Positions 4,999-32,000 of a stretch of DNA of 32,000 nt are shown in pieces. The notes under the pieces are model-generated. The model saw only the letters and a program-made list of their open reading frames with translations, searched no databases and had not been told where the DNA came from. The translations under genes were made by a program, and so were the position numbers. The DNA comes from an unicellular cyanobacterium SU2 (lineage in GTDB: Bacteria > Cyanobacteriota > Cyanobacteriia > Cyanobacteriales > Microcystaceae). Location of the stretch: positions 127,650 through 159,649 of the forward strand of contig NEED01000001.1 of assembly GCA_002110465.1 (NCBI GenBank), in the 5' to 3' direction. How positions within the stretch are numbered: position 1 is the first letter of the stretch; the number at the start of each line of letters is the position of its first letter.

Positions 4999-6255
4999 AT
5001 GGATTTACTTGAATATCAAGCGAAAGAACTTTTTCATCGGGTGGGTATTCCCATTTTGCCATCCCAACCCATCGCTAATCTCAGTGAAATCAAACATCTC
5101 CAGATTCCCTATCCGGTCGTGTTAAAGTCACAAGTGCGTTCTGGGGGTCGTGGCAGGGCCGGAGGTATCCGCTTTGTAGAAAATACTATAGATGCGATCG
5201 CGGCTGCTCAAGCAATTTTTAGTCTGGCGATTTTAGGAGAATATCCTGAAGTAATCTTGGCAGAAGCTCGCTATGATACCCAATCAGAATTTTTCCTCTC
5301 AGTTCTTCTTGATTATCAACTTCAGCGTCCAGTTTTACTCGGGTCAACCCGAGGGGGAATTGAGGTGGAAACTCTCCTGAAGAATATTGAAAAAGTCGTG
5401 GTTGATGGAGACTTTTCCCCTTTTTACGCTCGCCGTCTAGCAACTAAAATGGGACTTAAAGGGGCATTGATCCCAACGGTAAGTTCTATTATCGAAAAAA
5501 TGTACCAAATTTTCGTAGAAAAAGATTTGGATTGGATTGAAATCAATCCTTTAGCAGTAAGTCCCACTGGAGAAGTGATGGCCTTAGATGGCAAAATCGC
5601 CGTCAATGATGCAGCATTGTTCCGTCATGAGGATCTTGTCGCATTACTAACGCCTCAGAAATCAGAAAGTTCTTTAATCAGCCTAAGAGAGGTTGAAGCT
5701 AAATCCTTTTCTGTCATTGAAGCTTCTCAAAAAGACGGTAAAATCGCTATGATTAGTAACGGCTGGGGATTGACTCTCACCACTTGGGATCTATTCGTGA
5801 ACCAAAAAGTGAATCCAGCTTGTGCTTGGATACTTAACGAACAAGAAGGGTTAACCGCTTTAGGAGAACAGCTAACGATTGCCTTAAAACAGGCCATGAA
5901 ATTAACTCATTTAAGGGTTATCCTAGTTAATGTTTTAGGTGATGCGAATACTTCTGAGGCCGTCGCTCAAGTAGTTGCCGATTGCTGTCAACCTTACCTT
6001 AACGGTGTCAACAACCTTCGGGAAGATCGCTTACCTCGACCAACAGGGACTAACGCCATTGATCGTCAACGGGGTCGTCAATCTCAAGGCTATTCAGTCC
6101 CATTCAAGGAACTTCCCCCTTTAGTCGTTCGCCTGGTTGGGGGAAATTTTGAACCGATTAAAGAAAGTCTTTGTGACTTGCCGATTGACTGGGTAGAGGA
6201 TTTAGAAGAAGCGATCGCCAAAACAATTTCTCTTATAACTCCTCAAAAGAAATAA
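4999..6255 (+). CDS. sucC: Succinate--CoA ligase beta-subunit-like ATP-grasp protein (divergent)
   Basis: 418 aa. N-terminal MDLLEYQAKELFHRVGIP, VLKSQVRSGGRGRAGGIRFV, EINPL and LDGKI match the SucC ATP-grasp half. The C-terminal half is recognisable but eroded. Confidence 0.8.
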   Translation: MDLLEYQAKELFHRVGIPILPSQPIANLSEIKHLQIPYPVVLKSQVRSGGRGRAGGIRFVENTIDAIAAAQAIFSLAILGEYPEVILAEARYDTQSEFFLSVLLDYQLQRPVLLGSTRGGIEVETLLKNIEKVVVDGDFSPFYARRLATKMGLKGALIPTVSSIIEKMYQIFVEKDLDWIEINPLAVSPTGEVMALDGKIAVNDAALFRHEDLVALLTPQKSESSLISLREVEAKSFSVIEASQKDGKIAMISNGWGLTLTTWDLFVNQKVNPACAWILNEQEGLTALGEQLTIALKQAMKLTHLRVILVNVLGDANTSEAVAQVVADCCQPYLNGVNNLREDRLPRPTGTNAIDRQRGRQSQGYSVPFKELPPLVVRLVGGNFEPIKESLCDLPIDWVEDLEEAIAKTISLITPQKK

Positions 6256-6355
6256 GTAGTCTTAACCTTAATTGAGGCAAAACTTAACAACACACAGGGT
6301 TATTTTTTGGTTTAATTCCACTAGGAATCCACTTTAACGAGACAATAGCTAATTT

Positions 6356-7258
6356 ATGAAATGGCAAGCTGACAGCAAAATTCTCATCCAAGGGATTACG
6401 AGTCCTCAGGGAGTTATTTATGGGGATCGGATGAAAGAATTTGGAATGAATATTGTGGCAGGAATTAGTCTTAATGGCGACATCTCTCAGGTAGGTGAAA
6501 TTCCTGTCTTTAATTTAGTAGAACAAGCCATCACTCAGCTTGGAGACATTGATATTAGTTTGATTTTTACCCCTCCTCATGAAGTATTAGATGCTGCTTT
6601 AGAGGCTATGGCATCAGGGATTCAACAATTGGTGATTGTGTCTGGGGGAGTTCCCCCCTTAGATATGGTCAAACTTCTTCATCAAGCACAAGTTAACAAT
6701 ACGTTTATTTTAGGGTCAGGCAGTCAAGGGTTAATTATTCCTGATAAGTTTTGGTTAGGGATTGGTGAGTATTCTTTTTATAGTCCTGGCGCGGTGGGAA
6801 TGATTAGTCGTGGCGATCGCCTTCTTGATGAAGTGGCTAGGGAATTAACTCAAGCTAAGTTAGGCCAGTCCCTCGCCGTTAGTTTAGGAACAGATTTAAT
6901 TATTGGCTCAAATTTTGAGCAGTGGTTACAAATAATTGAAGAAGATGATACCACTAAGGTAATTGTTCTCTTAGGCAAGTGCGACAGCTATGCTGAAGTC
7001 TCTGCGGCCGAATATATTGCGTCAGCTATTGAAAAACCAGTCATTGCTTATATTACCGGAATTCATGCTCCGATTGAACGAAATTTTCGAGATGCTAAAA
7101 CCATTGTGGCAGCCCAACTCTCTTCTTCTAGGGGACAGGTTTCTTCAGACCAAGCGATCATGGATGCTTTCAAAAAAGCGAAGGTTAAGGTAGCCAAACA
7201 TCCGTTTGAGATTGTTAAGCTAGTTAAAGCCTCTCTTTCTCGTAAATCTTCTAAGTAG
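6356..7258 (+). CDS. sucD: Succinate--CoA ligase alpha-subunit-like protein (divergent, no GHAGA loop)
   Basis: 300 aa, collinear by eye with E. coli SucD: ILIQGITSPQG vs VICQGFTGSQG, GMISRGDRL vs GIVSRSGTL, KPVIAYITGIHAP vs KPVVGYIAGVTAP. Confidence 0.75.
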   Translation: MKWQADSKILIQGITSPQGVIYGDRMKEFGMNIVAGISLNGDISQVGEIPVFNLVEQAITQLGDIDISLIFTPPHEVLDAALEAMASGIQQLVIVSGGVPPLDMVKLLHQAQVNNTFILGSGSQGLIIPDKFWLGIGEYSFYSPGAVGMISRGDRLLDEVARELTQAKLGQSLAVSLGTDLIIGSNFEQWLQIIEEDDTTKVIVLLGKCDSYAEVSAAEYIASAIEKPVIAYITGIHAPIERNFRDAKTIVAAQLSSSRGQVSSDQAIMDAFKKAKVKVAKHPFEIVKLVKASLSRKSSK

Positions 7259-15964: not shown

Positions 15965-17266
15965 TTAACGATAAGATGGGTTTTGAATATCTTTTAAACG
16001 GGCTTCGGGACGTAAAAACCGATCCATTTGCGACTCAAAAAATTGACGATTTTTCAGTAAATGTTTAGGGTTTTGATCGTCTAAAGGATACAATAACGCT
16101 TGACGTAACGCTTGAATAACTGCCGAAGTTACATTATACATTGATCGCTGAAAAGTAATTCCCAACTGAATCAAAATATCTTTTTCACCGCGACAATGTT
16201 TTTGATAATATTCCTTGAGGTAATCTGGCAAAAAATGATACATATCATCCATCAATAATGTGGGGGGAATTCCTGCGGTTCCCACGGGAAAAACATCCGC
16301 ATACAAAATGCCATAATGAAAATCTTTTTGATCATCAGGAACTTGTTTAGCTTGGGCGTTATAAGACTTAGTTCCCCTAAAGGGTGCAGTGCGATAAAAT
16401 ACTGCTTCAACGTAAGGTAAAGCTGCTTCATATAGCCAAGTAAACCCCTTAGATTTAGGGATAATTTCGTAACATTCCCCTCCAATATAAACATGATGAT
16501 AAATAGGACGGCCAGCAATCGCAAAAATGCCATTAACTAGGAAATTCATGGCATCAGGAACCCCTTTAAATCCTCCTTCATCGTAAATATCAGACATTTC
16601 AAAAAAAACGGGAGCCATCACTTCCCAAAATAACCCCAGATTGGAATAATAAGAGAGTTGTCTGACTTGTTCAAAAAACATTTCAGGAAACAGTTTATAT
16701 AACCCTAACATGGCAGGATTATTCTTAAAATAGGCTTTTATTGCCTGATCTGCATTCGCTTTATATTCATCACTATCTAAGTAAGCATCAAACTTACCTA
16801 ACCCCATATTTCGACCATGCCAAAACATCGCTCGCATACAAGCTTCAGCAAATTCCATATTGATGCGATCATGCCAAAGATGATGGAACAGCTTAGGCAT
16901 TTTTTTTGTGTTACCCTTCTCGATGAAGTCTAATAATTCAGGGTGTGCGCTTGCTTCTCCTCGCCAAATTCTTAGGTCAGCATCATCACCAGCGTAATGA
17001 TTATGTAAGTCTAAATATTCTTTAGGGAGGAAATATTTAAAAAAGGGAAGCGGTTCCAAAAAAACTCTCTCAGCGATATATAATAAGTCTCGCCAATAAA
17101 AATCCATCGGGACAGCATAAGCTTTATAAATCCCAATAATTTGCATCAAGTTTTCTGGGGTATCAGGTAGCATTGATCCCCCAGCTTCTAAGCGATGAAT
17201 CACATCAGCAAAAGCATGGGTAGAAGGAGGGATTTTAGCAATAGGAGTGAGAGTTGTTTGTTCCAT
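15965..17266 (-). CDS. cupA: CO2 hydration protein CupA/ChpY of the NDH-1MS high-affinity CO2 uptake complex
   Basis: 433 aa (CupA-sized rather than CupB-sized). Immediately downstream of the ndhF3-ndhD3 paralogues. His/Cys-containing conserved blocks (HHLWHDRINMEFAEACMRAMFWHG). Confidence 0.9.
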   Translation of the reverse strand: MEQTTLTPIAKIPPSTHAFADVIHRLEAGGSMLPDTPENLMQIIGIYKAYAVPMDFYWRDLLYIAERVFLEPLPFFKYFLPKEYLDLHNHYAGDDADLRIWRGEASAHPELLDFIEKGNTKKMPKLFHHLWHDRINMEFAEACMRAMFWHGRNMGLGKFDAYLDSDEYKANADQAIKAYFKNNPAMLGLYKLFPEMFFEQVRQLSYYSNLGLFWEVMAPVFFEMSDIYDEGGFKGVPDAMNFLVNGIFAIAGRPIYHHVYIGGECYEIIPKSKGFTWLYEAALPYVEAVFYRTAPFRGTKSYNAQAKQVPDDQKDFHYGILYADVFPVGTAGIPPTLLMDDMYHFLPDYLKEYYQKHCRGEKDILIQLGITFQRSMYNVTSAVIQALRQALLYPLDDQNPKHLLKNRQFFESQMDRFLRPEARLKDIQNPSYR

Positions 17267-17302
17267 GATTAATTTTTGATTTTTGTTGATTTGTATTGTT
17301 GA

Positions 17303-18802
17303 TTACCGTTCTTCGGTTACCGAAAAAGCCACTTGTTCAATTTGATTAACATGGACTACAAATAAATCCGTAGTGGGTTCAATCCACCGCAATAACCAGT
17401 TAGGTTGAATCCCCAAAAATAAAATGATAACGGTTAAAACAAAAGCTGGAATGGTTTCAGAAGGCAAAACCGGGGGATAATAAGCCTTTTGGTTGTTCAA
17501 TTTGCCAAAACAAGTCCGATTAAGCAAAATTACAAAGTAAACGGCTGTTAATCCAGAGGCAATAATACAAAGTAAGGTTGGAATGGGAAAAGTCGCAAAA
17601 CTTCCCTGAAACACAATAAATTCCGCCGCAAATCCCACTAATCCAGGGATACCAGCACTGGCCATTCCTGCAGTAATTAGTAAGGCACTGGTGAGAGGTA
17701 AACCGCGAATAGGGTTCATTAACCCGTTGAGGACATCTAAATCACGGGTTCCCACTTTGCGTTCCACAATACCGACGAGATGAAAGAGTAAGGCGAGAAT
17801 CAAACCATGACTAATCATTTGGGCGACTGCACCCAGGATGCTTAATTGAGTTCCGGCGGCGGCAGCCACTAAAATATAACCCATGTGACCAATAGAACTA
17901 TAGGCTACCATGCGTTTAATATCTTTTTGAGCGATCGCACTTAAAGCCCCATACAACACACTCACGGTTCCAATAATAGCTAGTCCTGGGGCAACAATTG
18001 ACCAAGCATCAGGGAATAATTGTAAGCCAAAGCGAATTAATCCATAGGTTCCCAATTTCGCTAAAATTCCGCCTAAAAGGATAGTAACAGCCGAAGAAGC
18101 TTCCGTATAAGCATCAGGCAACCAAGTATGAAGGGGAACTAAGGGAATTTTAATCCCAAATCCTACCAATAAGACGGTTAACAAAATCAGTTTTGTGTTT
18201 AACGTTAACCCTTGGGTAGTGATAGTATCGTAGTCAAAACTGGTAGCACCATTGAGAAAACCAATCCCTAAAAAGGCAGCTAAAACTAATAATCCTGAGA
18301 CGGCTGTATAAATCAGAAATTTAGTTGAAGCATAACCTCTTTTTTCTCCTCCCCAAATGGCGATCATTAGGTAAAAAGGGATTAATTCAAGTTCGTAAAA
18401 AATCACGAATAACAATAAGTTTTGAGCTACTAAAGCCCCTGTTATTCCGGCATTAATCAACAGTGTTAAAGCGTAATAGAGACGAGGACGTTGAACATTT
18501 TCCCCAATACTATAGATGGCAATAATGGTGAGTAAACTATTGAGAGCGACTAAAGGCAAAGATAAACCATCAACAGCCAAACTGTAACTTAAGCCAATGG
18601 GAGTAACCCAAGGTAAATATTCTGAAAATTGCCATCCTGGGTTACTCAAATCAAACTGAGTTAATAACCAAATTGTTCCCGCAAAAATAACGACAGCCAA
18701 AAAGGTTGTCATTTGTCTTAAACGGTCTGACTCAAACTTTCCTGGGATAAATCCAATAATCATTGCTCCCAGTATGGGAAACCAAAGTAAAAAACTAAGC
18801 AT
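17303..18802 (-). CDS. ndhD3: NAD(P)H-quinone oxidoreductase subunit D3 (NuoM/NdhD family, CO2-uptake type)
   Basis: 499-aa polytopic membrane protein of the NuoM/NdhD family. Assigned to D3 from its position between the ndhF paralogue and cupA. Confidence 0.85.
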   Translation of the reverse strand: MLSFLLWFPILGAMIIGFIPGKFESDRLRQMTTFLAVVIFAGTIWLLTQFDLSNPGWQFSEYLPWVTPIGLSYSLAVDGLSLPLVALNSLLTIIAIYSIGENVQRPRLYYALTLLINAGITGALVAQNLLLFVIFYELELIPFYLMIAIWGGEKRGYASTKFLIYTAVSGLLVLAAFLGIGFLNGATSFDYDTITTQGLTLNTKLILLTVLLVGFGIKIPLVPLHTWLPDAYTEASSAVTILLGGILAKLGTYGLIRFGLQLFPDAWSIVAPGLAIIGTVSVLYGALSAIAQKDIKRMVAYSSIGHMGYILVAAAAGTQLSILGAVAQMISHGLILALLFHLVGIVERKVGTRDLDVLNGLMNPIRGLPLTSALLITAGMASAGIPGLVGFAAEFIVFQGSFATFPIPTLLCIIASGLTAVYFVILLNRTCFGKLNNQKAYYPPVLPSETIPAFVLTVIILFLGIQPNWLLRWIEPTTDLFVVHVNQIEQVAFSVTEER

Positions 18803-18850
18803 TTTTCATCCTTTTGATGTGATTAATTGTTGACTAGATAACACAAGGGT

Positions 18851-20686
18851 TTAAAACAAAAAGTTAGAAAAAACCATGCCAACAAACAGAATAACTCCTA
18901 GAAAAATGGTCAAAAAGTAAAATTGAGTTTGACCGGAAACATTGTATTTCAAGCTTTCTCCACTAAAGACAGTTGCTAAGCCAACTAAGTTAATCACCCC
19001 ATCCACGAAATACCGATCAAACCAAGCGATAATTTTAGAAATTAACCCAACGACAAAGACAATGGTGACGCGATAAAACTCAGCCGTGTATAAGTCGTAA
19101 GTGAAAAACTCTTGTATGGCTTTCGGTTTGAATTCAATGGGTTTAGCAACATTATTAGTTAAGTAAATCCAGGCTGAGGTTCCCGCACCAACGACTGTGG
19201 AAAATATTAAAGCACTAACCACCGTTAAATTCAGTGTTTTCCACTCAGGTAAGAAATTCCATTGCTGCAATAAAATAGGAACGTGCAAAGCAAATCCCAT
19301 AGTTACCATCATGGGCAATACTAAAGCCCACAACCCTTCAGGAGAACGAACGGTCATTTGTTTCGGTTTACCGCCAAAAATTAGACTAAATTCACGGGTC
19401 AGGCTAAAGGCCGTTAATCCATTGACAATCACCATAACTCCCACTAACTCAGGATGACTATCCCAGAGATGATCTGCCATTTCAGTCAGTGTCCAAAAAC
19501 AGCCTAACGGAGGAAAAGCAACGAGAGACCCGGCACCGACTAAATAACAAATACCAGAAATAGGACGACGAGACCATAAACCGCCGTATTGAGTCAAATC
19601 TTGAGTAATGTTATTCAAAACTACTCCACCAACACTCATCACCAATAAGGACATGGCGATCGCATAGGTAAACAATAATTTCAACGCTGTTTCACTTTGT
19701 TGCGTAGCCACCGCGATGAACACTAAGCCCATGTAAGCACTGACAGAATAGGAAAGCGATCGTTTAATATCAACTTGGGCGATCGCAATTAACCCTGAAC
19801 CAATCGCTGTGACAGCACCCACACCAATCATGACGGTGGAAGTAACAGGAGATAACGCCAACACAGGTTGTAGTTTAATTAATACCCATGCACCGGTCGA
19901 AACCACAATGGTATTCCGTAAAATGGTAGCCGGCATAGGACCTTCCATCGCTTCATCTAACCAAAGATGGAGAGGAAATTGAGCGCATTTGCCCAGAGGA
20001 CCTGCAATTAAAGCCAAACAAAGTAAAGTTGCGACAGTCGGCTCAAGGGTGGTGGTATTTGCCCATTGGGCTAACTCGGTATAATTCCAGGTTCCTGCTA
20101 GGGGTAACAAAGCAACCACTCCCATCAACAGAATTAAATCCCCAACCCGTTTGGTTAAAAAAGCATCTCTGGCCCCTGTTACTACCAAAGATTGATTAAA
20201 CCAAAATCCAATTAATAGATAAGTCCCTAGGGTGAGAATTTCTAAGACTACATAGCTGAAAAACAGAGAATTACATAAAACTAGCGTAGATATCCCTGCT
20301 TCAAACAAAGCTAGAAGGCAATAAAAACGCGCCCACCCCCAATCCATTTCCAAGTAACCAATGGCATAGATTTGAGCAGCTAAATTTAAACCAGCAACGA
20401 GGATGAGTGCGCCAATAGTAATTGAAGAAATTTCGAGATCGAAAGTAATATTTAAATTCGCCGCATGAAGCCACTGAAAGGATAAATAGCTAACAGGTTG
20501 ATGCCAAGTTTCTACAAGAGCGAGAGAACTATGTACTAAGGCCGCAAAGGTCATCAATATATTAATATAACCTGACGGTCTCGGTCCTGTTTTACGAATA
20601 ATTCCCGGTGACCAGGGAATAGCTAGTATTGCCCCAATTAAGGCGTACAAAGGCACTAGCCAAAGAGTTTGACTAAAATTAATCAT
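18851..20686 (-). CDS. ndhF3: NAD(P)H-quinone oxidoreductase subunit F3 (NuoL/NdhF family, CO2-uptake type)
   Basis: 611-aa polytopic NuoL/NdhF-family protein, first gene of the F-D-cupA arrangement. Confidence 0.85.
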   Translation of the reverse strand: MINFSQTLWLVPLYALIGAILAIPWSPGIIRKTGPRPSGYINILMTFAALVHSSLALVETWHQPVSYLSFQWLHAANLNITFDLEISSITIGALILVAGLNLAAQIYAIGYLEMDWGWARFYCLLALFEAGISTLVLCNSLFFSYVVLEILTLGTYLLIGFWFNQSLVVTGARDAFLTKRVGDLILLMGVVALLPLAGTWNYTELAQWANTTTLEPTVATLLCLALIAGPLGKCAQFPLHLWLDEAMEGPMPATILRNTIVVSTGAWVLIKLQPVLALSPVTSTVMIGVGAVTAIGSGLIAIAQVDIKRSLSYSVSAYMGLVFIAVATQQSETALKLLFTYAIAMSLLVMSVGGVVLNNITQDLTQYGGLWSRRPISGICYLVGAGSLVAFPPLGCFWTLTEMADHLWDSHPELVGVMVIVNGLTAFSLTREFSLIFGGKPKQMTVRSPEGLWALVLPMMVTMGFALHVPILLQQWNFLPEWKTLNLTVVSALIFSTVVGAGTSAWIYLTNNVAKPIEFKPKAIQEFFTYDLYTAEFYRVTIVFVVGLISKIIAWFDRYFVDGVINLVGLATVFSGESLKYNVSGQTQFYFLTIFLGVILFVGMVFSNFLF

Positions 20687-21139: not shown

Positions 21140-22732
21140 ATGCAATTCAACCTTAATTCTTATCCCTATCGGTCCCAACGTCGAGTGATTTTAGGTCAAC
21201 GTTGCGCGGCGGCTACCAGTCAACCTTTAGCTACTTTAGCAGGACTCGAAATGTTTCAAATGGGGGGGAATGCAGTCGATGCGGCTGTTGCCATGGCAAT
21301 TGCTTTAACAGTAGTTGAACCGACTTCTAATGGGATTGGTTCGGATGCGTTTGCGATGGTTTGGGATGGTCAATTACACGGATTGAATGCTTCTGGAAAA
21401 ACCCCTAAAACACTTTCGTTAAAAGCTTATGAAAATGTGCCAGAAATTCCCCAGTTAGGATGGTTAACTGTAACGGTTCCTGGGGCAGTTTCAGCTTGGT
21501 ATCAGTTATGGAAAAAATGGGGAAAATTAGCGTTTGAACAATTATTTAGTCCAGCAATTCGCTATGCAGAATCAGGGTTTCCTGTGTCCCCAGTTACGGC
21601 TAATAGTTGGCAACAAAAAGAGACGATATATCTACCCTTAACTGCTCCAGAATTTCAACCATTTAAACAAGTTTTTTTTTCCAAGCATCGCGCTCCAAAA
21701 ACAGGAGAAATTTGGGGTAGTTTTTACCATGCTAAAACCTTAAAAGAAATTGCTAAAACGGGAGGAGAAAGTTTTTATAAAGGAAAGTTAGCCGAGAAGA
21801 TTTCTAATTTTTCTAGTGAAACTAGAGGATATTTAAACTCCCAAGATTTAGCCAATCATCAACATTTATGGGTTAACCCAATTTCTACTCAATATAAACA
21901 GTTAAAAGTCTGGGAAATGCCCCCGAATACTCAAGGAATTGCTGCCCTCATGGCCTTAAATATTTTAGAAGGGTTTGAAATCGAAAAATATCCCCGTGAT
22001 TCAATAGAAAGTTTTCATTATCAAATTGAGGCAATGAAACTAGCATTCGCTGATGTGCATCATCATGTTGGCGATCCAAATTTTATGGAAGTCTCTATTG
22101 AGCAGCTTTTAGATAAATCTTATGCAAAACAGCGTCATAATTTAATTAATAAGCAAGCAATTCCGTTAGTAAAATCTGGAATACAACGAGGGGGAACAGT
22201 TTATTTATGTACGGCAGATGATGATTTAATGGTATCGTTTATTCAATCTAATTATGATGGGTTTGGAAGCGGAATTTTAATTCCAGAAACAGGAATTGCT
22301 CTACATAATCGTGCCTCTGGGTTTACCTTAGAAACAGGACATCCTAATCAAATTGCTCCCAACAAACGACCCTTTCATACCATTATTCCAGGGTTTTTAA
22401 CCCACGAGAATCAACCCCTGGGTCCCTTTGGCGTGATGGGTGCGCCAATGCAACCCCAAGGACACCTACAAATGGCTGTTAATCTGACTGATTATCAAAT
22501 GAATCCTCAAGCTGCCTTAGATGCCCCTAGATGGCGATTTTTAGAAGGAAACAAGGTACTTTTAGAAAAGGGTGTATCTAATAGAATTATTCAGGGGTTA
22601 CGTCAACGAGGTCATGATGTTGAAATTGCCCCAGAAACTATGTTTGGTAAAGGTCAAATTATTTTACGACACCAAGGGGTTTTAGTCGCTGCTTCTGAAC
22701 CTCGCGCCGATGGATTAGCCTTAGGATATTGA
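21140..22732 (+). CDS. ggt: Gamma-glutamyltransferase
   Basis: 530 aa. GGNAVDAAVA, the autoprocessing/nucleophile site GGTVYL, and the FHTIIPGF and GAPMQPQG blocks. Confidence 0.95.
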   Translation: MQFNLNSYPYRSQRRVILGQRCAAATSQPLATLAGLEMFQMGGNAVDAAVAMAIALTVVEPTSNGIGSDAFAMVWDGQLHGLNASGKTPKTLSLKAYENVPEIPQLGWLTVTVPGAVSAWYQLWKKWGKLAFEQLFSPAIRYAESGFPVSPVTANSWQQKETIYLPLTAPEFQPFKQVFFSKHRAPKTGEIWGSFYHAKTLKEIAKTGGESFYKGKLAEKISNFSSETRGYLNSQDLANHQHLWVNPISTQYKQLKVWEMPPNTQGIAALMALNILEGFEIEKYPRDSIESFHYQIEAMKLAFADVHHHVGDPNFMEVSIEQLLDKSYAKQRHNLINKQAIPLVKSGIQRGGTVYLCTADDDLMVSFIQSNYDGFGSGILIPETGIALHNRASGFTLETGHPNQIAPNKRPFHTIIPGFLTHENQPLGPFGVMGAPMQPQGHLQMAVNLTDYQMNPQAALDAPRWRFLEGNKVLLEKGVSNRIIQGLRQRGHDVEIAPETMFGKGQIILRHQGVLVAASEPRADGLALGY

Positions 22733-24097: not shown

Positions 24098-24367
24098 ATG
24101 ACTGAAATCTTAAGTCGTTTAGGAACTAATCCTATGGTTCAGAGCTTTGTTAGTAATCTTGTGGTGGGAGAAATAACCCTACTGACGGGATTATTTTGGC
24201 TCATCATCGCTGGCATAATGTCTGTTATTGGTGGGGCCATCGGTGGAATGTTATTAGCAGGTAAAGATTTAGGTTATCAATTATCTGCCATGATGGGTAG
24301 TTTATTGGGTCCTGCTGGGGTTATTCCTGTTGCTGCGGTTGGACTTGTTGTGTTGAAATTAGTATAG
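24098..24367 (+). CDS. Small membrane protein with glycine-zipper helices
   Basis: 89 aa with two hydrophobic helices (IIAGIMSVIGGAIGGMLLAG, GSLLGPAGVIPVAAVGLVVL). Strong SD aaggag at 24082-24087, 10 nt before the ATG and 27 nt after the TPR gene stop. Confidence 0.55.
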   Translation: MTEILSRLGTNPMVQSFVSNLVVGEITLLTGLFWLIIAGIMSVIGGAIGGMLLAGKDLGYQLSAMMGSLLGPAGVIPVAAVGLVVLKLV

Positions 24368-24379
24368 GACTTACCGACA

Positions 24380-24604
24380 ATGTTAGAACTCACTTGGTAT
24401 TCTGCAAAACTATTTTTCCAAGGAAAATTAATCCGTAACCCTGGATATTTTTACCGACAGCTTTCCTTTGGCGTGATCATCGGTTTGTTGTTATTAGTCG
24501 GGTTAGGAGAAACAGGAATTAACTTAGCTATTGCTATCGGAATTTCTAGTTTAATAACAGGAATGGCTATGCCATTTTTACTTAAGGATGTGAAAATGAA
24601 GTAA
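24380..24604 (+). CDS. Small two-helix membrane protein
   Basis: 74 aa with hydrophobic segments FGVIIGLLLLVGLG and LAIAIGISSLITGMAMPFLL. Starts 12 nt after the preceding stop. Confidence 0.45.
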   Translation: MLELTWYSAKLFFQGKLIRNPGYFYRQLSFGVIIGLLLLVGLGETGINLAIAIGISSLITGMAMPFLLKDVKMK

Positions 24605-24839: not shown

Positions 24840-25712
24840 ATGACTCAATCTACTCCCGTATCAGAAAACCGTAAAACCTTAGAAACATTAGTAGAAGAAA
24901 TTAGTCGGTATGAACACATAATAGGACAATGGGATCAGAATCAACAAGTTGTTGTAGAAAGATTAAAAGAAGCGGTTGAAGAATTACATAAAGAAGGTTT
25001 AACTCGTCTAATTCGGAGTGTTAAACAAGAGTCTATGCGGGCATTGCGTAGTGCCGTTGAAGATGAAATTGTGTATGGATTATTACGTTATCATCAATTA
25101 ATTAAACCCCCCACCCCGCCTTTAGAAGACCGTATTCAACAAGCATTAGAAACCGTTCGACCAGGATTAAAAAGTCATAACGGGGATGTAGAATTAGTGG
25201 CGATTAAACTTCCTGATACTGTAGAAGTTCGATTAATTGGAACCTGTAGCAATTGTCCGGCTTCTACTTTAACGATGAAACAAGGAGTTGAACAAGCAAT
25301 TAAAACTTATTGTCCTGAAATCACAAAAGTTGTATCGGTTAATAATTCTTCAAAAGTTACTAATAATAACGGTCATTCTAGTAGTCCCTTTGCTTCTTCT
25401 CAAGAAATAGGTTGGGTAGCCTTAGCCAGCATTGATGAGATACCCAATGGAGGAATTTTACCCTTAGAAATTGAAGGATTAAAGTTAATTTTAACCCGAC
25501 AAGATGAGCAAGTGATTGGCTATCGTAACAGTTGTAATCATCTAGCTATGCCCTTAGATACAGGTAAAGTTGAAGACGGTATTTTAACTTGTTTATATCA
25601 TGGGTTTAAATATCGCTTAGCTACGGGAGAATGTTTGACTGCACCTGGAATGTCCCTAGAAGTTTATCCCGTGAAACGAAGTGGCGATCGCGTGTTAGTT
25701 AGAGTTTCTTAA
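24840..25712 (+). CDS. Fusion protein: N-terminal helical domain + NifU C-terminal (Nfu-type) domain + Rieske [2Fe-2S] domain
   Basis: Nfu block HNGDVELVAIKLPDTVEVRLIGTCSNCPASTLTMKQGVEQAI (CxxC). Rieske ligand boxes CNHLAMPL and CLYHGFKY. The two are separated by a Ser/Asn-rich linker. Confidence 0.8.
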   Translation: MTQSTPVSENRKTLETLVEEISRYEHIIGQWDQNQQVVVERLKEAVEELHKEGLTRLIRSVKQESMRALRSAVEDEIVYGLLRYHQLIKPPTPPLEDRIQQALETVRPGLKSHNGDVELVAIKLPDTVEVRLIGTCSNCPASTLTMKQGVEQAIKTYCPEITKVVSVNNSSKVTNNNGHSSSPFASSQEIGWVALASIDEIPNGGILPLEIEGLKLILTRQDEQVIGYRNSCNHLAMPLDTGKVEDGILTCLYHGFKYRLATGECLTAPGMSLEVYPVKRSGDRVLVRVS

Positions 25713-27388: not shown

Positions 27389-28471
27389 ATGACAACCACT
27401 TTACAAACTAGAGAAAATCTTTCTCTATGGGAACGGTTTTGTCAGTGGGTGACTAGCACCAATAACCGCCTTTATGTAGGTTGGTTTGGTGTTATTCTCA
27501 TTCCCACCATTCTCACCGCGACCATTTGTTTCATTATCGCTTTCATTGCGGCTCCTCCTGTGGATATTGATGGTATCCGCGAACCTGTGGCGGGTTCTCT
27601 CCTGTATGGAAATAACATTATTTCTGGAGCGGTTGTTCCTTCATCTAACGCCATTGGATTGCACTTTTATCCCATTTGGGAAGCAGCCTCCCTTGATGAG
27701 TGGCTGTACAATGGTGGTCCTTATCAGTTGGTGGTTTTCCACTTTTTGATTGGGATTTTCTGTTGGATGGGAAGACAATGGGAACTTTCCTATCGTCTAG
27801 GGATGCGTCCTTGGATTTGTGTTGCTTACAGTGCGCCCGTTTCTGCTGCAACCGCCGTCTTTCTCGTTTATCCTATCGGTCAAGGGTCTTTTTCTGATGG
27901 AATGCCCCTAGGAATCAGTGGAACCTTTAACTTCATGTTTGTGTTTCAAGCAGAACATAATATCTTGATGCACCCATTCCATATGTTGGGAGTTGCTGGA
28001 GTATTTGGTGGTGCTCTATTTTCTGCCATGCACGGTAGTTTAGTCACCTCAAGCTTGGTACGGGAAACTACAGAAACCGAGTCTCAGAACTATGGTTACA
28101 AGTTCGGACAAGAAGAAGAAACCTATAATATTGTGGCTGCTCACGGTTACTTCGGTCGCTTAATCTTTCAATATGCGTCTTTTAATAATAGCCGCAGTTT
28201 ACACTTCTTTTTAGGAGCTTGGCCTGTCATTGGTATCTGGTTCACGGCGATGGGAGTAAGTACCATGGCCTTTAACCTGAATGGATTTAACTTTAACCAA
28301 TCAGTGTTAGATTCTCAAGGACGAGTGATTAATACTTGGGCTGATGTACTAAACCGCGCGGGTATCGGGATGGAAGTAATGCATGAACGGAATGCTCACA
28401 ATTTCCCTTTAGATTTAGCGAGTGGTGATCAAACATCCGTAGCTTTCATCGCACCAACTATTGATAGCTAA
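27389..28471 (+). CDS. psbA: Photosystem II reaction centre protein D1
   Basis: 360 aa, near-identical over its full length to remembered D1 sequences. YZ (Y161), H190, D170, E189, H332/E333/H337/D342/A344 and a 16-aa C-terminal extension are all present. Gln at position 130. Confidence 0.98.
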
Positions 28472-28670: not shown

Positions 28671-29066
28671 TCAATCTTCCCCTTCTACTTGAGCTTGATA
28701 TTCACTAGCTGATAGAGTATTGTCCAAGTCGTTATCAATATTACTAACTCGAACTTTAAGTAACCATCCATCGCCATAAGGATCGTCGGCAAGCTGTTCA
28801 GGGTTTTCAATCATCTGTTCATTGCGATCAACCACTGTCCCTGACACCGGTGTTACTAAATCCTCAGCCGCTTTGACAGATTCAATGGCACCGAAAGCTT
28901 CTTCAACTTCGATGGCATCTCCGACTTCAGGCAATTCTAAAAAAACGATATCCCCAAGCTGTTCAATAGCATAGGCACTAATGCCAATGGTGGCAATTTC
29001 TCCATCTAACCGAACATATTCGTGGGAGTCTAAATATCTGAGATCATCAGGATATTCTAAGTCCAT
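28671..29066 (-). CDS. gcvH: Glycine cleavage system H protein
   Basis: 131 aa. [23 protein letters not shown] and the lipoyl-lysine motif ESVKAAEDL. Confidence 0.95.
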
Positions 29067-29143: not shown

Positions 29144-31447
29144 TTAAGACCAGGGATCAGGCATTCTTTGAAATGGGTTAAACTCTCCATCAGTATCCAA
29201 TTGTTGGGAGTCTGAAAAATCTGCTGCGATAGTTTCTTTGTCCGCGTGAAGTTCTTGCCGAAGAAGGTCCCAATCACCTGGATCAGTGAGTTCTTCATAT
29301 AAGTGGGAATCTGCTGAGATTGTTTCTTTACTCGGATCGATTTCATGTTTCAGGTGTTCCCAGTTTTGAACTTGGGTTAAAACTTCATCAGCAGGAGTAA
29401 TGGTGGGATCTGAGTCATTCAAAGAAGGAACCGTAGATTCAATGGCTTGCTTGAGGCCTTGAAACTCTTGGGTTAAGGAAATGAGAAGCTTTTGAAAATT
29501 CTCGACTCGTTCGGTCAGATTCATTGATAATTGATCATGGTTATTTGTCTGAGATATTTGTGCGAGATCTTCAGCAAATATTTGGGCAATATCTTTTAAA
29601 CTAGCTTGACCTTGCTCAACAAATTCTAGGGCGGTGGTTAGGGGAGAAAGTAAACCGTCTTGTTTAGCGGCTTGTTTAAAGACTTGGCGATCTGCTTTTT
29701 GAGTGATCGCAATTTTGACGGAGGGAGTTCCCTGTATTATTTCGTAGACTTCAAGCTGGCCACTGTACCCTTTCCCATGACATTGACGGCATAACCTTCC
29801 CCGTTCCTGGGCTTGTTTGATGGCTTCATCATTAAGAATTCGTGGTTGATAAAACGTTAATTGCTCTTTTGTGGCTGGTGCAAGACCAAATTTGGCTAAT
29901 TCAGCCGCATTGGGATCATAAACAAATTGACAAGTCGGACACAGACGAGGTAGAGAATGAGGATGGATAACGGCTACTAACGTATCAGCTAAAAGGGAAT
30001 TATCAACCATTTGGCTCAGGTCAGCTAAGGCAGTGGCTCCATCATTAGCCTGAAAACTGGTCAACATCAAGTGATTACGGGACATTTCCACGACCATACG
30101 GGCAGTGGTAGTATCTCGAACCTGATCCACCATGACAATATCTAAATCTTGGGTTGAGAGCGATCGCAATACCGACCCATAGCCCTTATCTCCCTTGGGA
30201 TCAATTTCGAGTTGGGTGATTCCTTCAAGCAGATGACCCATCAATTGTTCTACCGTTGCGATGCTCAATTGTTCTTTTTTCTTGTAAGACAATAGGCTAT
30301 ACAGCAGATTAAACGTTTCAAATTGACCGGAATTCCCTATGACAATTAATCCTGACTGATAACTCATTAAGTCTTCAATTAATTTTCGGATAGACTCTTG
30401 GGGAATTAATGTCTGTAAATTGGGAGGCTTAATAGAACTATCAAGAATACGGATCGAGGCTTTCTCTCCAGACATACTGGGCAATATGTTGACCAGAAAA
30501 TAAAGGCTACGGTCACCACCCCTTTGACAAATACGACCCTTTTGAGGCTTTTGTTGTTGGCTAATGTCTAACTGAGCCATGATTTTCAACCGTGAAAGGA
30601 TTGGTGCGGCAACCTTTTTAGGTAAGGGGTCAAACAATGGTTTCAAAGTCTCTTCTGACTTTTGACGATAACGAATGATACACTGCTGTTCGTGAGGTTC
30701 AATCTCAAGTTGGATGGCTTGTTTTTCGATCGCTTTATTCAGAATTTTATTAACTAAGACAACAATTGGGGCGGCCGTAGAGTCTTCTGAAAACATCACT
30801 GAGGGTTGCTCATAGACTTCTGTCGCATCAACTAAGGTGGCCTCCGAAGACATTTCTGGTAAATTGTTGAGAGCTTTCAACGGTTTTTCTTTGATAACCT
30901 TTTGTTGATTGCTCGGTTGATGTGTATACTGTTCCATAATTTCACTGGATAATTCATTGTAATCTTCTTGGGTAATGCCTACTCGTTGCCAAGAAATATT
31001 CTGTCCTAATGCTTGAGTGATCTTGTTTTGGGCGTTGATATCACTAGGATTTACCATTGCGACTCTTAAAGAAACACCCATCTGTGATGAGGTTTCAATT
31101 TGGTTGATCGGTAACAGTTGATAGCGACGACAAAGTTCGATGGGAATCATTGCATCGATGAGTTTGGCCATTGTTTCGGGATCTACCGATTCTGTTTCGA
31201 GATCAATAAAGTCAATCCCATGGAGAATTTTTAGGGTAAAGCGGTTGCGTTCTTTGTAATGACGCACCAACTCAGGTGGTAGAGATTGGCCGGTAATCTC
31301 TTCGAGAACGGTCATCAATGGACGGCCGGAATTTCGAGCTTCAATAAATGCTTGCTGCATCCGAGGCAGATTAATATAACCCGACTGAATTAGTTGGTTA
31401 CTAAAAGGAGATTGGGTAAATTGCTCAATATCTTTGGAGAGGGACAT
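29144..31447 (-). CDS. PilB/GspE-family (type II/IV secretion ATPase fold) protein with degenerate nucleotide-binding motifs and a C-terminal acidic extension
   Basis: 767 aa. N-terminal T2SE_N-like domain, core collinear with PilB/GspE, and tetracysteine CPTC...CRQC retained. Walker A position reads GNSGQFET, Walker B region DIVMVDQVRD and His box TSFQAN. Confidence 0.85.
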   Translation of the reverse strand: MSLSKDIEQFTQSPFSNQLIQSGYINLPRMQQAFIEARNSGRPLMTVLEEITGQSLPPELVRHYKERNRFTLKILHGIDFIDLETESVDPETMAKLIDAMIPIELCRRYQLLPINQIETSSQMGVSLRVAMVNPSDINAQNKITQALGQNISWQRVGITQEDYNELSSEIMEQYTHQPSNQQKVIKEKPLKALNNLPEMSSEATLVDATEVYEQPSVMFSEDSTAAPIVVLVNKILNKAIEKQAIQLEIEPHEQQCIIRYRQKSEETLKPLFDPLPKKVAAPILSRLKIMAQLDISQQQKPQKGRICQRGGDRSLYFLVNILPSMSGEKASIRILDSSIKPPNLQTLIPQESIRKLIEDLMSYQSGLIVIGNSGQFETFNLLYSLLSYKKKEQLSIATVEQLMGHLLEGITQLEIDPKGDKGYGSVLRSLSTQDLDIVMVDQVRDTTTARMVVEMSRNHLMLTSFQANDGATALADLSQMVDNSLLADTLVAVIHPHSLPRLCPTCQFVYDPNAAELAKFGLAPATKEQLTFYQPRILNDEAIKQAQERGRLCRQCHGKGYSGQLEVYEIIQGTPSVKIAITQKADRQVFKQAAKQDGLLSPLTTALEFVEQGQASLKDIAQIFAEDLAQISQTNNHDQLSMNLTERVENFQKLLISLTQEFQGLKQAIESTVPSLNDSDPTITPADEVLTQVQNWEHLKHEIDPSKETISADSHLYEELTDPGDWDLLRQELHADKETIAADFSDSQQLDTDGEFNPFQRMPDPWS

Positions 31448-31691: not shown

Positions 31692-32000
31692 ATGAGTTTA
31701 CGTCATCTTAACTATTTAAAAGTTTTAAATTGTCTAGGAAGCGTCATTTTTTTGTCTCCTACTCAAGGAGAAAATATTCTTATTCATGACCCATCGACAG
31801 AGATTTATTTTCTCGCTCAACAATCTACTAATGTTCCTAACCTAGAAGAAATATTGATTCGAGGGATGGAAAAAGGGATTAAAGGAGATTATCAAGGAGC
31901 GATCGCTGATTTTACCCAAGTGATTCGCCTTAATGCCTATGAGGTGGAAGCTTACTATAATCGAGGCATTGCCTATTATAGAATCGACAACTATTCTCAG
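31692..32000 (+). CDS. TPR repeat protein, 3' end beyond window
   Basis: Open frame from ATG 31692 to the window end (103 codons, no stop; not in the ORF track because it is unterminated). Hydrophobic N-terminus, then the TPR consensus GDYQGAIADFTQVIRLNAYEVEAYYNRGIAYYRIDNY. Confidence 0.6.
   Translation, partial: MSLRHLNYLKVLNCLGSVIFLSPTQGENILIHDPSTEIYFLAQQSTNVPNLEEILIRGMEKGIKGDYQGAIADFTQVIRLNAYEVEAYYNRGIAYYRIDNYSQ

Follow-up and report, generated by a model that had tools for sequence, protein, structure and literature searches.

Can a protein built like the extension ATPase of type IV pili be of use to a cell when its ATP-handling residues are gone? The question is raised by a gene on the minus strand, at positions 29144–31447 of a 32,000-nucleotide stretch of the chromosome of the unicellular cyanobacterium SU2 (contig NEED01000001.1, positions 127,650–159,649; the whole stretch is called the window below). 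The open reading frame (ORF) is intact, starts with ATG and comprises 767 codons plus a stop codon (29144–29146), and its 767-residue product is an exact match to database protein P0001. The original prediction, made from the sequence of the window, had described this product as a PilB/GspE-family protein with degenerate ATPase signatures and as a candidate pseudo-ATPase. Our analysis indicates that it is very probably a pseudo-ATPase belonging to the cyanobacterial PilB2 family, that of Slr0079 of Synechocystis.

The protein gave two Pfam matches, one to T2SSE (PF00437; E=1.7e-53, residues 224–620, 182 bits against a cut-off of 24.9) and one to MshEN/T2SSE_N (PF05157; E=1.2e-10, residues 76–166, nucleotides 30950–31222). 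Together with the ORF list, these matches uphold the earlier description of an intact 767-codon frame, collinear with PilB and GspE and furnished with a T2SE_N-like N-terminal domain. Scores against the NCBIfam equivalogs for PilB (TIGR02538, 237 bits) and GspE (TIGR02533, 233 bits) lay under the respective cut-offs of 675.65 and 630.25. In the AlphaFold2 model, residues 12–175 and 226–634 were confident, and the linker between them and the C-terminal tail were predicted to be disordered. When the core was compared with known structures using Foldseek, it matched PilB, PilF and GspE (5tsh, 5oiu, 5zfr) with E values of about 1e-35 and TM-scores of up to 0.77.

From these data and the alignments described below, the protein can be divided into an N-terminal PilB1-like region (residues 12–175, 30923–31414; predicted local distance difference test score (pLDDT) of about 80), defined by the Pfam match and by collinearity with PilB1; a poorly conserved, disordered linker (residues 176–225, 30773–30922; pLDDT <50); the N2D domain (residues 226–345, 30413–30772), supported by the Foldseek match to the PilB/PilF/GspE core and by conservation; and a RecA-like C-terminal domain (CTD) with the ATPase fold and a dead nucleotide pocket (residues 346–634, 29546–30412; pLDDT about 85–95). 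The first zinc-binding pair of cysteines, CPTC (residues 503–506, 29930–29941), is invariant in the family and in canonical PilB and GspE, and the second, CRQC (residues 553–556, 29780–29791), lies inside a family signature, RLCRQCxGxGY. Both pairs had been noted in the original prediction, and all four residues, C503, C506, C553 and C556, proved to be invariant in the family. The window protein has the fold of the PilB/GspE secretion-ATPase superfamily (N2D plus RecA-like CTD), and the whole PilB architecture is kept: PilB1-like N-terminal domains, N2D, RecA-like CTD and zinc tetracysteine.

The register of the nucleotide-site motifs was examined in HMMER alignments with solved PilB (5zfr, 6olj) and GspE (4pht) chains. 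The Walker A sequence vt-GPTGSGKT stands opposite vi-GNSGQFET (GNSGQFET, residues 371–378, 30314–30337), which does not conform to GxxxxGK[ST]; the register of this segment differs by one residue between MAFFT and HMMER, and the P-loop lysine is present in neither. Opposite the Asp-box sequence tAEDPV lies aTVEQLM, and of the pattern E-D-P-x-E the remnant TVEQLMG (residues 398–404, 30236–30256) keeps the first glutamate, E400, alone, the D401, P402 and E404 positions being lost. The atypical Walker B motif (hhhhGE followed by IRD), DIIMIGEIRD in the solved chains, reads DIVMVDQVRD in the window protein (residues 436–445, 30113–30142), with the glycine replaced by aspartate (D441) and the catalytic glutamate by glutamine. 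Finally, lvlSTLHTND is matched by lmlTSFQAND, in which the His box T-L-H-T-N reads SFQAN and the histidine has become glutamine (remnant TSFQAN, residues 463–468, 30044–30061). In N2D, the conserved RxPQDGR is replaced by QKPQKGRI (30530–30553), and the arginine of DxR is also lost.

The nucleotide coordinates originally assigned to Walker A, Walker B and the His box are exact, and alignments to Pfam profiles, to PDB sequences and to the fold all confirm degenerate motifs at the canonical positions. By these alignments the residues that would bind and hydrolyse ATP are gone, namely the P-loop lysine, the Asp-box acids, the Walker B glutamate, the His-box histidine and the conserved arginines of N2D and the CTD. 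We infer that the protein cannot be a motor and would be unable to power pilin polymerisation.

The closest relatives of the window protein are 32–55% identical to it over their full length, come from Rippkaea, Cyanothece, Aphanothece, Crocosphaera, Snowella, Microcystis and Pannus, and are all motif-degenerate; the proteins of Rippkaea orientalis and Cyanothece are the nearest, at 52–55% identity. Next in rank come canonical PilB1 proteins of cyanobacteria, which are about 36% identical and have perfect motifs. When 1.84 billion representatives were searched exhaustively with a profile, 28 clusters (at 50% identity) with a C-terminal ...DPW sequence were obtained. A profile search of an annotated database with the family alignment A1 brought no further members, the Synechocystis proteins being reached only by a subgroup alignment (A3). 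A scan of the genome collection, which was limited by its two peptide patterns and is not a census, yielded nine cyanobacterial loci. At least 56 non-redundant DPW-tailed proteins formed one neighbour-joining (NJ) clade, in which a single tail-less sequence was nested, apart from the short-branched PilB1 proteins.

Within this clade the Walker B glutamate is kept in one of 56 members and the His-box histidine in four. The Walker A lysine is kept in 23, which include Synechocystis PilB2 and in which the catalytic glutamate and the His-box histidine are still absent. In the subclade of the window protein the P-loops have drifted freely (GNSGQFET, SSADKLGL, SSANQRMI, TGATSKNL and others). The earlier statement that every ATPase signature is degenerate therefore holds for the window subclade, but not for the whole family, where 23 of the 56 keep a GxxxxGK[ST] P-loop.

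Conservation was tabulated for 61 family sequences against 19 PilB1 proteins and a further 28 PilB/GspE sequences. Some 40 positions with at least 90% invariance in real ATPases are free of constraint in the family, among them every Walker A position, the D, P and E of the Asp box, the glutamate of Walker B with the arginine that follows it, the His box, and conserved arginines in RxPQDGR, DxR and the CTD segments. Fold-defining residues and the four zinc cysteines stay invariant. The dead-motif positions are 100% invariant in the 47 canonical PilB/GspE sequences and lost across the clade of 56 relatives, a pattern which is far beyond chance. Across the orthologues surveyed, motif degeneracy is shared by the entire clade.

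Two acidic residues of the nucleotide site were conserved. Asp441, in place of the Walker B glycine, was found in 100% of the 61 family sequences, the canonical sequences compared having glycine in 100%, and the Asp-box residue E400 was present in 98% of the family. If the protein were an active ATPase relying on non-canonical residues, the invariant Asp441 could serve as its catalytic or Mg-binding acid, since it gives an hhhhD sequence like that of the classical Walker B aspartate; the retention of E400 and Q412, and of GxxxxGK[ST] in some relatives, would also be explained. However, the P-loop of the window subclade is unconserved, without a lysine in either alignment register, and free drift of the P-loop is incompatible with nucleotide binding. 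Also lost are the His-box histidine, the acids of the Asp box and five or more conserved arginines. An active enzyme of this kind is most improbable.

The strength of selection on the gene was estimated from eight independent Crocosphaera orthologues, all of them intact and all ending in PDPW(S). Pairwise ratios of non-synonymous to synonymous substitution (dN/dS, Nei–Gojobori) were 0.16–0.30 overall, 0.06–0.15 in N2D, 0.08–0.21 in the RecA-like core, approximately 0.1–0.4 in the acidic tail and 0.25–1.1 in the equivalent of the N-terminal linker. As the catalytically dead core is the most constrained part of the protein, simple decay is excluded, and a use for the shape or the surface of the core is implied. 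A slowly decaying pseudogene that has stayed open by chance would be expected to show long branches, low identity between orthologues (30–55%) and lost motifs, all of which are seen. It would not be expected to persist as full-length intact ORFs in dozens of genera and lineages of metagenome-assembled genomes, with dN/dS well under 1 and lowest in the ATPase-fold core, nor to conserve a family-specific aspartate and a terminal motif, and this explanation is effectively refuted. The loss of the ATP-handling residues is ancient, clade-wide and held under purifying selection. With intact orthologues in many lineages, low dN/dS and clade-wide motif loss, the view that this is a conserved pseudo-ATPase rather than a decaying gene is borne out.

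The link to PilB2 comes from the Synechocystis members of the family. The window protein shares its NJ clade with P0322, P0325 and other Synechocystis members, and is 30% identical to P0325 over 662 residues. Both P0322 and P0325 have aspartate for glycine at Walker B, have lost the catalytic glutamate and the His-box histidine, keep the P-loop lysine and end in NPFKSVIDPW. In Synechocystis PCC 7339 the genes run in the order sufB-sufC-sufD-sufS ... PTPS, the gene for P0325, rnhA, a response regulator gene, rimO and crhR, of which we take PTPS to be slr0078 and sufBCDS to be slr0074–0077. In PCC 6803, slr0079 is pilB2 (PMC7690421), slr0080 is rnhA (PMC10989914) and slr0082–slr0083 are rimO-crhR (PMC6693541). 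The flanking order is that found around slr0079, indicating that the gene for P0325 occupies the pilB2 slot.

PilB2 of Synechocystis PCC 6803 ('GspE/PulE') resembles the window protein in NJ clade, domain order, the Walker B glycine-to-aspartate change, the loss of the glutamate and the histidine, and the tetracysteine. Neither has the Cys4 finger of PilB1, and they end in NPFKSVIDPW (Synechocystis) and NPFQRMPDPWS (window protein). The Synechocystis-type proteins differ in that they keep the P-loop lysine (GAAYGGKT[ST]), are 798–815 residues long and carry Pro-rich inserts, whereas the window protein has lost the P-loop fully, keeps the E400 that is lost in Synechocystis, and has other gene neighbours. 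PilB1 and PilB2 co-occur in Microcystis (P0019/P0406 versus P0017), which indicates paralogy and not replacement.

To our knowledge, PilB2 has carried the label 'function unknown' since 2001. Additional PilB homologues in cyanobacteria, termed PilB2, have been described as variable in sequence and without the C-terminal domain of PilB1, their function being given as unknown (PMC4390875, PMC7690421, PMC12288463, bioRxiv 10.1101/2021.06.11.447907). The window family agrees with the description in PMC4390875 in its long branches and in having no Cys4 finger. A pilB2 mutant of Synechocystis PCC 6803 retains motility and pili, its transformation being reduced to about 37% of the wild-type level (PMC7690421, PMC4390875). 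The original prediction that no function had been described for such a protein was thus right in that the function is still called unknown, but the family has a name, PilB2 (Slr0079), and a published knockout phenotype (PMC7690421, PMC4390875), so that it is not a categorically new system.

Loss of the catalytic site and the presence of a tail are absent from the reviews that treat PilB2 and from a 2024 review of PilB cofactors (PMC11656802). No paper on a dead active site or a tail in PilB2 was found in a search outside which the original 2001 paper of Yoshihara et al. lay, and literature searches for a pseudo-ATPase in connection with type IV pili, for a degenerate Walker motif in cyanobacterial PilB, or for cce_2912 gave nothing relevant. 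So far as we could determine, there is no description of an active site that is dead across the family, of the graded loss of the P-loop, of the invariant Asp441 or of the DPW tail.

Cyanobacterial PilB1 (Slr0063) has the fold, the N-terminal 100 residues and the zinc tetracysteine in common with the window protein, to which it is about 36% identical over 80% of the length. It differs in its intact catalytic motifs, its short tree branches and its usual pilB-pilT-pilC locus. The N-terminal 100 residues of the two are near-collinear ('SPFxNxLIQSGY...ITGxxLPP'), indicating that the family arose through duplication of PilB1, which is evidently the parent.

At the C-terminus the two proteins part. 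The Cys4 zinc-finger-like domain of PilB1 (C..C...CPYC..PRF), which is reported to bind Hfq (PMC4390875), is absent from the window protein, and a conserved helix and an acidic tail stand in its place. The helix is predicted to be long and coiled-coil-like (residues 640–671, 29435–29530), with the family-conserved sequence R647..LE..EKLL.ALT.EF..LKQ. The tail (residues 672–767, 29147–29434) is acidic, is predicted to be disordered and contains conserved short motifs, recognised by alignment: IDPSKETISAD (29309–29341), LYEELTDPGDWDLLRQEL (29249–29302), HADKETIAAD (29219–29248) and, at the very end, FNPFQRMPDPWS (29147–29182). Across the family, tails carry one or two ...KE(T/A)(I/T)... motifs as well as LYEELTDPGDW. 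In the 56 members the terminal consensus is N-P-F-K-S-[IV]-x-D-P-W, optionally followed by serine, and the median net charge across the last 100 residues is −14. The tail looks like a disordered segment bearing several short docking motifs ([DN]P-aromatic). The C-terminal helix and acidic tail are the most function-relevant feature of the protein; both, with their NPFxSxxDPW ending, had been overlooked in the first reading of the sequence, as had the invariant D441.

Other C-terminal ends occur among PilB proteins. P0372 (738 residues) has canonical motifs throughout, nests in the PilB1 clade and has a coiled-coil C-terminal end in place of the Cys4 finger; its tail may have been replaced independently, or may hint at the origin of the PilB2 tail. 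Beyond the DPW/PilB2 clade, long-branched PilB paralogues form a larger radiation in which the motifs are degenerate in part or in full and the C-terminal ends are different (P0147, P0155–P0157, P0176, P0178, P0181, P0182, P0185, P0187, P0189, P0190, P0195, P0199, P0202, P0247 and P0374), of which P0147 is from Cyanothece sp. SIO1E1 and P0374 from Coleofasciculus sp. Several of them end in '...AQVEVAV...'-like sequences. Non-catalytic PilB paralogues may be more diverse than the PilB2 family alone.

In Crocosphaera (loci L002–L009 and L015) and in one Snowella subclade (P0057–P0068), the proteins are 590–653 residues long; the PilB1-like/MshEN N-terminal region is gone, and the dead core and the DPW tail are kept. 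It follows that the N-terminal domains are dispensable for the role played by core and tail. This observation bears on whether the protein could be a receptor for cyclic diguanylate (c-di-GMP), with an MshEN-type N-terminal domain binding the ligand and the dead ATPase body relaying the signal. Such a role is suggested by the Pfam MshEN match and by the fact that MshE and some PilB proteins bind c-di-GMP through their MshEN domains (PMC5013675). When the window protein was searched for the 24-residue MshEN motif as defined in the same work, RLGxx[LVI][LVI]xxG[LVI][LVI]xxxxLxxxLxxQ, neither a strict tandem nor a relaxed match was detected. The relaxed motif was also absent from 18 of the 19 family members examined; canonical PilB1 keeps one relaxed half-motif. 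According to a review, the full tandem motif is present in no Synechocystis MshEN domain (PMC10124867). These results, together with the complete loss of the region in two subclades, make a c-di-GMP receptor highly unlikely.

The surroundings of the gene were examined in the window and in orthologous loci. In the window, gcvH (28671–29066) lies directly downstream on the same strand, psbA is found at 27389–28471, and a divergent tetratricopeptide repeat (TPR) gene starts at 31692. The neighbours are those named in the original prediction, which had also reported that no pil genes are nearby; none was recognised among the ORFs of the 32-kb window, eight of which were scanned against Pfam. Promoter and terminator scans around the gene gave matches at background level. 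The gene is followed by gcvH in Rippkaea as well. In Crocosphaera subtropica ATCC 51142 (L015, 4266–7791) and Aphanothece sacrum (L016, 4351–8295), apcA-apcB-apcC (two Phycobilisome-domain genes and a CpcD gene) lie directly upstream, and in Microcystis a CpcD-domain gene is found near the pilB2-type gene (L013/L014, 7042–10292). Either conservation of an ancestral gene order or co-expression with allophycocyanin may account for the apc linkage. In Microcystis, Pannus, Snowella and Synechocystis the gene has other neighbours. The gene stands alone.

Two functional connections to neighbouring genes were considered and rejected. Docking of the acidic tail on the divergent TPR protein, by analogy with EEVD-TPR recognition, was discarded because the TPR neighbour is conserved in no orthologous locus, and a link to gcvH or apcABC because each of these linkages is limited to a few related genera. 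In Aphanothece sacrum, a four-gene cluster on the minus strand (L016, 8741–13409) converges on the pilB2-type gene and contains a weak match to GspH, a minor pseudopilin; this is the only examined locus with anything pilus-like nearby.

These neighbourhoods raise the alternative that the protein has been recruited away from pili, with the PilB fold as no more than a stable oligomeric scaffold and a non-pilus partner bound by the DPW tail, for example in the photosynthetic antenna or in carbon metabolism. Recruitment of this kind would agree with the lack of adjacent pil genes in every genome examined, with neighbours that recur but inconsistently (apcABC, the CpcD-domain gene and gcvH), and with the mild effect of the Synechocystis knockout on pili (PMC7690421). 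The neighbourhoods nevertheless vary by genus and none is operon-like; the sole recorded phenotype, reduced transformation, needs pili; and most members keep the PilB1-like N-terminus, the part that contacts the base of the machine in PilB/GspE homologues. We consider a non-pilus role unlikely.

The reading that we prefer, although we would put it at slightly under an even chance, is that the protein serves the pilus motor as an adaptor or a regulator. PilB2 would then be a nucleotide-independent structural mimic of PilB1, working as a ring of its own or as a subunit of mixed rings with PilB1. Its conserved N-terminal and N2D/CTD surfaces would engage the pilus base (PilC/PilM), PilB1, or both, its C-terminal tail would recruit a putative partner, and pilus-dependent functions such as DNA uptake would be tuned without pilin polymerisation being driven. 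An adaptor fits the mild, pilus-dependent phenotype in Synechocystis. The wider suggestion of the original prediction, that the protein is a scaffold, regulator or partner, is probable, and its core is supported.

There are partial precedents for such an adaptor. PilU with PilT, and TfpB with PilB in Acinetobacter baylyi, are likewise paralogous ring ATPases that share a machine with the primary motor and work together with it, and mixed or interacting rings have been considered for pairs of this type (PMC11656802, PMC6762196). PilU and TfpB are catalytically competent, however, whereas the window paralogue is dead and has its own docking-type tail at the C-terminus. FimX, a degenerate GGDEF/EAL protein that acts on PilB, follows the same principle, an enzyme fold that has lost catalysis being kept as a regulator of pilus extension (PMC11656802). 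It differs in its unrelated fold and ligand logic, no ligand being predicted for the window protein.

Several observations weigh against the adaptor proposal. The P-loop persists in 23 of the 56 members, so that for part of the family nucleotide binding may be important, and the description as nucleotide-independent might hold for the window subclade only. No pil gene is adjacent to the gene in any orthologous locus examined, and the connection with pili is made by homology and by one mild knockout phenotype in an orthologue that is 30% identical. Docking through the N-terminus cannot be essential to the core function of the family, given the two subclades without that region. The NJ trees carry no support values, and long branches could make the clade look more monophyletic than it is; the orthology with slr0079 is positional and was shown in Synechocystis PCC 7339, not on the PCC 6803 sequence. 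In addition, a two-hybrid assay of Synechocystis PilB2 with Rre6 was negative (PMC7656254), a result that is silent on other partners.

A more elaborate version of the adaptor proposal, which we hold to be doubtful, would have PilB2 as a nucleotide-free mimic of the PilB1 hexamer that competes or alternates with it on a single PilC/PilM platform. The multivalent tail (...DPGDW...NPF...DPW-COOH) would bring a dedicated client and thereby switch the machine between motility, DNA uptake and secretion. If this were true, PilB2 would be the first 'pseudo-motor' adaptor in any type IV filament system, and bacteria would have a new docking motif in the terminal DPW peptide.

Several other features were observed in the window. 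A plus-strand ORF of 290 residues (24840–25712) joins a NifU-like domain (residues 99–165) to a C-terminal Rieske [2Fe-2S] domain (residues 192–277), an uncommon Fe-S fusion. Between it and a TPR gene lie two tandem plus-strand ORFs of 89 and 74 residues (24098–24604), encoding very hydrophobic, Gly-rich peptides of membrane type. On the minus strand, 15965–20686 contains an ndhF3-ndhD3-chpY operon for the inducible high-affinity CO2-uptake NDH-1 complex, in which the CO2 hydration protein ChpXY was matched with E=1e-166 and the other names are from translations alone; a gamma-glutamyltranspeptidase-like gene (21140–22732) is divergent from it. At 4999–7258 on the plus strand, a 418-residue ATP-grasp_2 ORF (succinyl-CoA-synthetase beta-like, with a long C-terminal extension) lies beside a 300-residue ORF that is sucD/CoA-ligase-like by translation alone, and the pair resembles a divergent SucCD-type ligase.

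Cyanobacteria carry out motility, phototaxis, natural transformation, secretion and biofilm control by way of a single type IVa pilus machine, and how one machine is shared among these tasks is the question on which PilB2 bears. The PilB2 family is a selectively maintained pseudo-ATPase in which the core of the fold is the most constrained part and an acidic DPW tail is conserved. An annotation as 'GspE/PulE family protein' thereby becomes experimentally addressable, and such genes should not be counted as functional extension motors in genome surveys. The family also adds a ring-ATPase example to the pseudo-enzymes of bacteria.

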